This document shows, piece after piece, positions 7,884-8,032 of a stretch of DNA of 64,000 bases; position 1 is the first letter of the stretch, and every line of letters begins with the position of its first letter. Origin of the DNA: Bacteroidota bacterium (lineage in GTDB: Bacteria > Bacteroidota > Bacteroidia > 2-12-FULL-35-15); the NCBI GenBank assembly GCA_052389695.1, contig JBQTHQ010000021.1:24295-88294 (forward strand), in the 5' to 3' direction. The translations under genes and the position numbers were made by a program. The notes below the pieces were generated by a model. The model made no database searches. It was not told the origin of the DNA and worked only from the letters and a program-made list of their open reading frames with translations.

Positions 7884-7907
7884 CGAATATATACGAATTT
7901 ACGAACC
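7884..7907 (+). repeat. TACGAAT-heptamer element copy C1 (partial), directly after the glmM stop
   Basis: cgaatatatacgaatttacgaacc read from the sequence. Confidence 0.5.
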
Positions 7908-7912
7908 TGGGG

Positions 7913-7953
7913 TATCTACTAAATTACCAATTGATACCAATATACCAATCTGT
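7913..7953 (+). repeat. TACCAAT-heptamer element copy C2
   Basis: atctactaaattaccaattgataccaatataccaatctgtg aligns base-for-base with copy A on the plus strand except for T->C in each heptamer. Confidence 0.55.
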
Positions 7954-7990
7954 GGTTTAGATTTGTAACCCAGATAGGTATCGATAGCAA

Positions 7991-8030
7991 CAATAATTAG
8001 TACATTAGTATAGATTAGTATTTTAGTAGA
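7991..8030 (+). repeat. ATTAGTA-heptamer element copy B, immediately 5' of the ATG of the cysteine desulfurase gene
   Basis: caataattagtacattagtatagattagtattttagtagatt followed by ATG at 8033. It is the inverted orientation of copies A/C2. Confidence 0.6.
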
Positions 8031-8032
8031 TT

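Follow-up and report, generated by a model that had tools for sequence, protein, structure and literature searches.

The Correia elements of Neisseria are an example of bacterial MITEs (miniature transposable elements with inverted repeats), and the phage seg and mob genes and the PD-(D/E)XK enzyme I-Ssp6803I are examples of free-standing homing endonucleases. MITEs are multicopy, non-coding units of ~80–150 bp bounded by terminal inverted repeats (reviewed in PMC3184786 and PMC10969869). Repetitive extragenic palindromes (REPs) are short extragenic repeats, also in many copies, that often form inverted intergenic doublets (REPINs), and the REP-associated tyrosine transposases (RAYTs) are small enzymes whose genes are bracketed by inverted repeats and far outnumbered by non-coding copies (PMC2817692, PMC3116915, PMC3733652). 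The TAACTGA repeats of Beggiatoaceae, Cyanobacteria and some Bacteroidetes are intergenic heptamers in sets of two to six (MacGregor 2015, PMC4679880). Here we compare with these systems a 64,000-nt stretch of a Bacteroidota metagenome-assembled genome (MAG; assembly GCA_052389695.1, contig JBQTHQ010000021.1, positions 24,295–88,294; hereafter, the window), which contains five arrays of the heptamer TACNAAT, three of them in the spacer between glmM and a cysteine desulfurase gene (csd). We consider it likely that such arrays are the gene-less, MITE- or REPIN-like ends of a selfish mini-element that encodes a nuclease of the GxxExxY family. The element family is apparently undescribed: literature searches returned no paper describing TACNAAT arrays and none tying GxxExxY/PDDEXK_3 to flanking repeats, the mentions found being incidental.

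Each array unit reads c-TACNAAT-(n)-TACNAAT-nnn-TACNAAT-n-TACNAAT and frequently has ctg(t)g after it; its heptamers start 7–8, 10 and 8 nt apart. A four-heptamer pattern with up to three mismatches (≤3) matches the window four times, against none expected in 100 shuffles, and an nhmmer profile built from 170 copies outside the window finds exactly five significant copies within it (E from 1e-10 to 1e-4). These are A (4684–4715), C1 (7875–7906), C2 (7917–7949), B (7996–8028, reversed) and D (61401–61439). All five contain four TACNAAT heptamers at the 7–8/10/8 spacing, and they align in register with the arrays that border GxxExxY genes, T-A-C-.-A-A being invariant in all four heptamers. A previous sequence-only reading had placed three heptamer arrays in the 149-nt glmM–csd spacer (7884–8032) and taken them for a non-random, repeated and structured element; both statements hold, although the window as a whole carries five copies and the heptamers are irregularly spaced rather than strictly tandem. 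It might be argued that the arrays arose by chance, or by local slippage of a heptamer microsatellite that is AT-rich and originated independently in this spacer, since other relatives carry unrelated tandem repeats between glmM and csd and heptamer simple repeats are common in bacteria (introduction of PMC4679880). This explanation is to all intents refuted, as the shuffles predict no matches and the irregular 7/8-10-8 spacing and flanking c...ctg are kept in more than 200 copies across phyla.

A genome scan for exact matches to TACNAATNNNTACNAATNTACNAAT, with one genome per species, yields at least 119 loci. Among the matches listed, all of them MAGs, ~70 are labelled Patescibacteria (Candidate Phyla Radiation, CPR) and ~38 Bacteroidota, with four labelled 'Gammaproteobacteria', one Omnitrophota and one Bacilli, the last of which looks like a chance match. 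Statistics for the family refer to the 205 nhmmer arrays found in 119 pattern-selected loci spanning 853 kb. In these loci, two inverted pairs with a wide gap (~400–500 nt; L034 and L076) enclose an open reading frame (ORF), which is frameshifted in L076 and in L034 encodes a GxxExxY protein (TIGR04256, 94.9 bits; PF13366, or PDDEXK_3, 95.1 bits). When all ORFs of at least 60 aa in the window and the loci were searched with jackhmmer, five of the six GxxExxY ORFs in pattern-selected loci proved to be bracketed by arrays whose R (fourth-heptamer) ends face the gene. To control for selection bias, GxxExxY homologues were then chosen by protein homology alone and their contigs inspected for arrays. 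All seven of these genes (P0048, P0061, P0029, P0119, P0008, P0038 and P0106) have the arrangement [array->] gene [<-array]; two carry the label Bacteroidota (P0048 and P0061), one carries Doudnabacteria (P0008), and the other four are unlabelled.

The full form, with the gene between two arrays, occurs in L034, L101, L103, L200, L203, L206, L208, L236, L237 and L238. The fit of gene to arrays is close: heptamer four often supplies the GxxExxY start codon (TACGA|ATG), with the stop codon 0–6 nt from the opposite array. The bracketed genes sit within operons, point the same way as the genes around them and leave almost no spacer. Two other small genes on the same contigs served as controls. A 23S_rRNA_IVP gene (PF05635) at 4791–5186 of L236 has no heptamer arrays, and a RAYT gene (PF01797) in L208 is bordered by inverted GTAGCGGCCGAACCGCTAC REPs of the GTAG type that are unrelated to the arrays. 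The first of these, a four-helix-bundle gene of Doudnabacteria, lies between TraC-like and TraG-like conjugation-operon genes with spacers of 14–18 nt and may itself be a different kind of small selfish insert. The second belongs to a textbook REP–RAYT unit (L208, 4797–5577 and 7128–7381), with an extra GTAGCGGCCGAACCGCTAC copy 2 kb away, and shares its contig with a GxxExxY-array unit. We had considered the arrays as REPs of a RAYT and dropped the idea because the L208 RAYT has different REPs of its own.

The GxxExxY protein is a bare PD-(D/E)XK core of ~130 aa with no recombinase domain, in which E37, D76, E86 and K88 are invariant. PF13366/TIGR04256 was listed as 'unknown' in a 2012 survey of PD-(D/E)XK proteins (PMC3424549), and a sequence search of the PDB found no relative. 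A profile search (E ≤ 1e-3) retrieves 16,996 representative clusters at 50% identity. Many of the top-scoring relatives are ~265 aa long with two tandem domains (e.g. P0261, P0263 and P0269), which hints that the single-domain protein works as a dimer. GxxExxY proteins that are 50–63% identical are common to CPR and Bacteroidota records, consistent with joint horizontal spread of protein and arrays between the two groups. Distant homologues from cultured organisms (26–35% identity) lie between other, lineage-specific repeats. In Prevotella nigrescens (protein WP_004367629) the gene lies between inverted arrays of NACAAAT/ATTTGN and has gene-less pairs close by (five places on a 568-kb replicon), and the genes of Treponema saccharophilum, a Fusobacteria plasmid and Persicobacter have a 16-nt inverted repeat, 52-nt direct repeats and AATCC arrays, respectively. 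Two other affiliations of the nuclease were considered and dropped. A phage origin was abandoned after a tblastn search of 50,697 phage records turned up no GxxExxY; in IMG/VR, 18 pattern matches among 2.9 million viral contigs come without a first heptamer or partner arm and look like chance AT-rich sequence. Membership in a defence system was abandoned because PADLOC gave only marginal Cas4/PDDEXK matches (E > 5e-4).

Comparison with relatives indicates that the window arrays are insertions. The window belongs to an uncultured Bacteroidota/Bacteroidia lineage. An exact look-up of the window csd protein found no identical record, and the closest relatives on record, L233 and L235, share 93–94% amino acid and about 83% nucleotide identity in csd. 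Their glmM–csd spacers, 52 nt in L233 and 49 nt in L235 versus 149 nt in the window, are array-free, and both also lack the stretch internal to C2 and B (7956–7995). Likewise, the spacer between the ComA-family gene and its TPR neighbour measures 21 nt in L233 and 126 nt in the window, where it holds array A. As these closest relatives have no arrays in the same spacers, the window copies must have been inserted, and glmM and csd do not need them. That the arrays are insertions of a nuclease-gene-linked family is what the sequence-only reading had missed. The nearest array-free sites are 83% identical to the window, and the insertion junctions are accordingly blurred. Eighty more distantly related glmM loci show the spacer varying from gene overlap through 2–3 nt to as much as 330 nt; where it is long, it is filled by unrelated repeats or by variant ACGAA-type inverted repeats.

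The spacer downstream of glmM is in fact a hot spot for unrelated repeats (L120–L199), with TAAACCG heptamer tandems in L184, GTTCAAAA-type tandems in L187 and other tandems in L142 and L153; the variant inverted repeat gtACGGATaACGAACaaaaACGAAatTACGAAT occurs in L120, L128, L130 and L145, and also in L084. The region 3′ of csd differs as well. L233 lacks the two plus-strand genes that follow csd in the window, for a CHU_C/T9SS-tail protein (9237–10415) and an ORF at 10525–11445, and has instead a minus-strand 681-aa gene directly after csd (window 9237–11445 versus L233 5056–7101), a difference that is a local rearrangement or insertion.

One of the insertions has rewritten the end of glmM. 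Array C1 (7875–7912, plus strand; nhmmer E = 1e-4 over 7883–7905) reads TACAAAT-AACGAAT-ata-TACGAAT-t-TACGAAC-ctgggg. It had been thought to start directly after the glmM stop. However, heptamer 1 (TACAAAT) occupies 7875–7881 and heptamer 2 (AACGAAT) 7882–7888, and together they supply the last two glmM codons (TAC AAA) and the TAA stop (7881–7883). The protein consequently ends in QQIAEYK* in the window, versus QQIAV* (as in L233 and L235) or QQITA* in more than 20 relatives. Array C2 (7913–7955, plus strand; E = 2e-6), tatc-TACTAAA-t-TACCAAT-tga-TACCAAT-a-TACCAAT-ctgtgg, is the left arm of a convergent pair with B. It is separated from B by a heptamer-free internal spacer (7956–7995) with TAGATTTG at 7959–7966 and a small hairpin (ctgtggtt...aacccag). 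Array B (7996–8032, minus strand; E = 1e-5), the right arm, is of the TACTAAT type reversed; its plus strand reads ATTAGTA-c-ATTAGTA-tag-ATTAGTA-t-TTTAGTA-g, followed by att and the ATG at 8033. Its first-heptamer (L) end points at the csd start, the outer GTAG (8026–8029) lying 3 nt ahead of the ATG. The whole C2...B unit is ~118 nt long and non-coding.

The two remaining arrays are solitary. Array A (4681–4721, plus strand; no mismatches, E = 3e-8), atc-TACTAAT-TACTAAT-cta-TACTAAT-a-TACTAAT-ctgtgt, has its L end 6 nt from the ATG (4675–4677, minus strand) of the ComA-family gene (3895–4677). Array D (61399–61449, plus strand; no mismatches, E = 1e-10), tc-TACGAAT-TACGAAT-cta-TACGAAT-a-TACAAAT-TACTAAT, has five heptamers and begins 2 nt past the TAG stop (61396–61398) of a class-IV aminotransferase gene. 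Just past D, at 61456–61482, lies a second repeat, ccctccttggaggggttaggggtgggt, with a hairpin CCCTC..GAGGGG and then TAGGGGTG. The ccctccttggaggggttaggggtgggt repeat recurs beside heptamer arrays at the Bacteroidota MAG loci L082, L095, L097, L074 and L084, and in L082 repeat and array lie together within a 100-nt tandem unit. Beyond heptamer four, gene-less Bacteroidota copies continue as ctgtgt...TTTGC(T/A)A...acacag (window 4716–4735; L022, L025, L026, L069, L073 and L107). This extension is missing from CPR copies and from arrays adjoining the GxxExxY gene, and may mark a sub-family of arrays.

The window copies follow a polarity that holds across the family: A abuts a start codon, C1 covers a stop, B abuts a start, D follows a stop, and C2 and B converge. 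Overall, 114 of the 205 arrays have their L end, and only 20 their R end, no more than 25 nt from a gene boundary, bearing out the expectation that the arrays are enriched beside start and stop codons. About half of the arrays are paired, in the form [L->R] gap [R<-L] with a gap of -12 to 107 nt, and solitary arrays are about as common. Inverted pairs are always convergent (50 convergent and no divergent pairs, beside 14 tandem ones). Many intergenic regions consist of one array pair and nothing else, whichever of the four possible arrangements the genes on either side have. Longer head-to-tail series also occur, such as four 60-nt units in L100 (3428–3660) and five arrays in a row upstream of the GxxExxY gene in L206 (3825–4065), indicating that arrays can amplify locally.

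Such positions could also suggest a host cis-regulatory module, in which a host factor (transcription factor, nucleoid protein or ribosomal protein S1) would control the adjacent genes by using the arrays as its operator, promoter or leader sites, and the link to GxxExxY would be incidental. In 58 of the 205 arrays, about a quarter, a start codon lies within 25 nt of an array end, usually without a Shine-Dalgarno sequence between, and the heptamers are under constraint. The TAACTGA repeats are similarly placed and have been tentatively read as translational control (PMC4679880). Yet stop codons are abutted as often as start codons: the L ends of solitary arrays fall at 30 gene starts and 26 gene stops, and this near equality implies no fixed orientation of the element in mRNA. 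Moreover, the genes beside arrays have unrelated functions, the closest relatives dispense with the arrays altogether, and the bracketing of all seven homology-picked GxxExxY genes by arrays in opposite orientation is hard to call incidental. A scan of 7884–8032 with a tool that does not cover Bacteroidota-type promoters found neither a sigma-70 promoter nor an intrinsic terminator. We therefore regard a regulatory origin as improbable. A narrower promoter reading, in which the reverse-complement heptamer junction TAtATT resembles a -10 box, was dropped on the equal use of stops and starts and the lack of a sigma-70 match. The Bacteroidetes -7 promoter consensus is TAnnTTTG, which TAGATTTG in the C2–B spacer matches, and an outward-facing promoter for csd may have been brought in with the inserted DNA. 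Under the selfish-element reading, any effect on csd expression would be a by-product of insertion.

The pairing of C2 and B had originally been read at the RNA level, as a ~40-bp stem that would form in a read-through transcript and hide the csd start, with copies evolving in concert. The inverted repeat itself is real, with arms (7914–7949 and 7996–8031) of 36 nt rather than ~40, 81% complementary and 46 nt apart, and B ending 3 nt rather than 2 nt from the ATG. The region 7870–8050 also folds slightly better than shuffles (-34.6 kcal/mol, z = -2.0). Nevertheless, the long C2/B stem is not what is predicted: pairing of C2 with B is confined to ~10 bp at their first-heptamer ends. Covarying copies were sought by comparing arm identity with shuffled partners in 34 inverted pairs, and the arms do not covary: identity is 0.46 versus 0.38 in shuffles at the fourth base and 0.35 versus 0.34 at the 3+1 spacer bases. 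No match at the Rfam gathering score is found in the window or in eight array-rich loci, solitary arrays are found in either orientation with respect to transcription, and the arrays are not conserved in orthologous spacers. A structured RNA evolving in concert is thus very improbable, and a hairpin or terminator reading was set aside for lack of covariation between the arms and on account of the weak fold. The uniform fourth base that had suggested concerted evolution is genuine in the window, where four of the five arrays share one letter at heptamers 2–4, with three letters among them (shuffle p ~0.001). It does not extend to the family, in which 85 arrays from loci with several copies show no excess homogeneity in a within-locus shuffle.

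The alternative offered alongside the RNA model, tandem protein-binding sites, fits the data. In L079, three sister units of ~110 nt occupy three intergenic sites, and none of the 54 fixed heptamer positions varies among them, versus 17 of 43 spacer and loop positions (p = 1e-7). Such constraint, confined to the heptamers, is the mark of each one being recognised by its sequence, in the simplest case by a protein. From this constraint and the strict bracketing of the gene, we infer that the GxxExxY nuclease recognises the heptamers and drives the spread of the arrays.

We propose the following model. The full element would be ~480–550 bp long and comprise one gene, for the ~130-aa minimal PD-(D/E)XK nuclease (TIGR04256/PF13366), between two inverted four-heptamer arrays. 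The heptamers would be its putative recognition sites, and binding would probably involve a dimer or larger oligomer, each 18-nt half-array presenting one pair of heptamers. Cutting by the nuclease would fall at or near the arrays, and host repair or recombination would then spread both gene-carrying and gene-less units among intergenic sites, through excision with repair or through homing into empty pairs. The window would hold only gene-less derivatives, namely C2/B as a MITE- or REPIN-like pair and A, C1 and D as solitary ends, inserted into formerly very short intergenic spacers of this Bacteroidota lineage. One of these insertions would have rewritten the glmM stop, and two would now stand directly upstream of start codons. 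The tendency of outer ends to touch or rewrite start and stop codons would be explained by the survival of such units being limited to the tiny spacers that compact genomes have.

Several observations weigh against this model. A PD-(D/E)XK hydrolase alone cannot perform strand transfer, which leaves the colonising of new sites unexplained, and the association between arrays and GxxExxY, drawn from sequence comparison, is correlative. No target-site duplication was found in ~50 pairs, where the flanks prolong the inverted repeat (c-TAC...GTA-g) and form no direct repeat. By jackhmmer, the GxxExxY gene is absent from the 64-kb window and from ~600 kb of the relatives' glmM-linked loci. The homogeneity of four of the five window arrays, with three different N letters, is not predicted by the model. 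Finally, the genome-scan matches listed are MAGs only, and their counts and taxon labels are a sample.

That no target-site duplication was seen would also suit a variant in which array pairs are landing pads for a free-standing homing endonuclease gene. Here GxxExxY would cut an empty pair and be copied in from a filled one, with the arrays as 35–40-bp homology arms, and the arrays themselves would spread by another route. The gene is located exactly at the position of the 0–70-nt spacer of gene-less pairs, its product is a bare nuclease core without a recombinase domain, and it sits co-directionally inside operons, as phage free-standing homing endonuclease genes do. However, homing leaves the spread of arrays to new, non-homologous sites unexplained, including two insertions specific to the window lineage; arms of 35–40 bp are short for recombination; and solitary arrays are as common as paired ones. 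We judge this variant unlikely and retain the selfish mini-element as the preferred explanation.

A broader generalisation, which we put forward tentatively as a possibility somewhat short of an even chance, is that GxxExxY (PDDEXK_3) proteins are the enzymes of a new class of prokaryotic mobile element, in which nothing but a minimal PD-(D/E)XK nuclease is paired with arrays of short direct repeats as ends. TACNAAT would be one lineage, in CPR and Bacteroidota, with other repeats in Prevotella, Treponema and Fusobacteria, and gene-less derivatives would fill the spacers of compact genomes and routinely become the leaders of genes without a Shine-Dalgarno sequence. Should the proposed mini-element itself hold up, a very large protein family would gain a concrete, testable function, and an abundant, unreported repeat family would be recognised in the intergenic spacers of Patescibacteria and Bacteroidota MAGs, where its insertions rewrite gene ends, as at the glmM stop, and 5′ leaders in genomes that make little use of Shine-Dalgarno sequences. 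Likely horizontal exchange between CPR and Bacteroidota would also be flagged, and other puzzling intergenic heptamer repeats, such as TAACTGA, may find an explanation. For annotation, the arrays would be a simple marker of inserted DNA and not conserved regulators of their neighbours.

The window holds other repeats as well. A perfect TATTTTTT tandem of 4.4 copies (27325–27359) lies in the 62-nt spacer between a 2443-aa ORF (19921–27252) and the next gene (27315–28763). A 1424-aa minus-strand ORF (46433–50707) contains tandem repeats of 180–192 nt at 47421–49951, and a 682-aa ORF (11454–13502) contains many 9-nt, three-residue repeats at 12088–12878; both encode repetitive proteins unrelated to the arrays.

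How, then, do the arrays compare with the described systems? With free-standing homing endonuclease genes they share a small nuclease ORF between conserved operon genes, co-directional and with almost no spacer. No homing endonuclease gene is known to have dispersed, inverted arrays of repeats on its two sides or to leave hundreds of gene-less repeat pairs around a genome. The TAACTGA repeats resemble the arrays in lying mostly a few nucleotides upstream of start codons without canonical ribosome-binding sites, with some copies reversed just past stop codons, and in a patchy phyletic distribution that suggests horizontal transfer; their function is given as unknown (PMC4679880). They differ in being perfect head-to-tail tandems, whereas TACNAAT has a fixed irregular spacing and a variable fourth base, and neither inverted pairing nor an associated nuclease gene comes up in the abstract and two sections of that paper that were consulted.

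Like REPIN–RAYT systems, the arrays are short extragenic repeats in many copies, often in inverted intergenic doublets, with a small bracketed enzyme gene far outnumbered by its non-coding copies, and their outer end, GTAG (CTAC on the opposite strand), is that of GTAG-tagged REPs. However, each arm here is four direct heptamers, whereas a REP is a GC-rich, self-folding palindrome; the arrays show no internal stem in the predicted fold and are not imperfect palindromes. The enzyme is a PD-(D/E)XK nuclease and not a Y1 HUH (PF01797) tyrosine transposase, and the genuine RAYT of L208 has unrelated REPs although a GxxExxY-array unit lies 2.5 kb away. REPs are hosted mainly by Proteobacteria, the arrays by CPR and Bacteroidota. 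Compared with MITEs, the arrays are set apart by the lack of a detected target-site duplication and by repeats that are heptamers with a free fourth base, and their longer form encodes only a 130-aa nuclease and no known transposase (DDE, HUH or serine/tyrosine). Despite these differences, they match MITEs in size, non-coding character, terminal inverted repeats and copy number, and also in inserting in intergenic regions near gene ends, remodelling gene termini and 5′ leaders, and being present or absent between close relatives. Together with GxxExxY, the arrays would then form a nuclease-based counterpart to the REPIN–RAYT and MITE–transposase partnerships.

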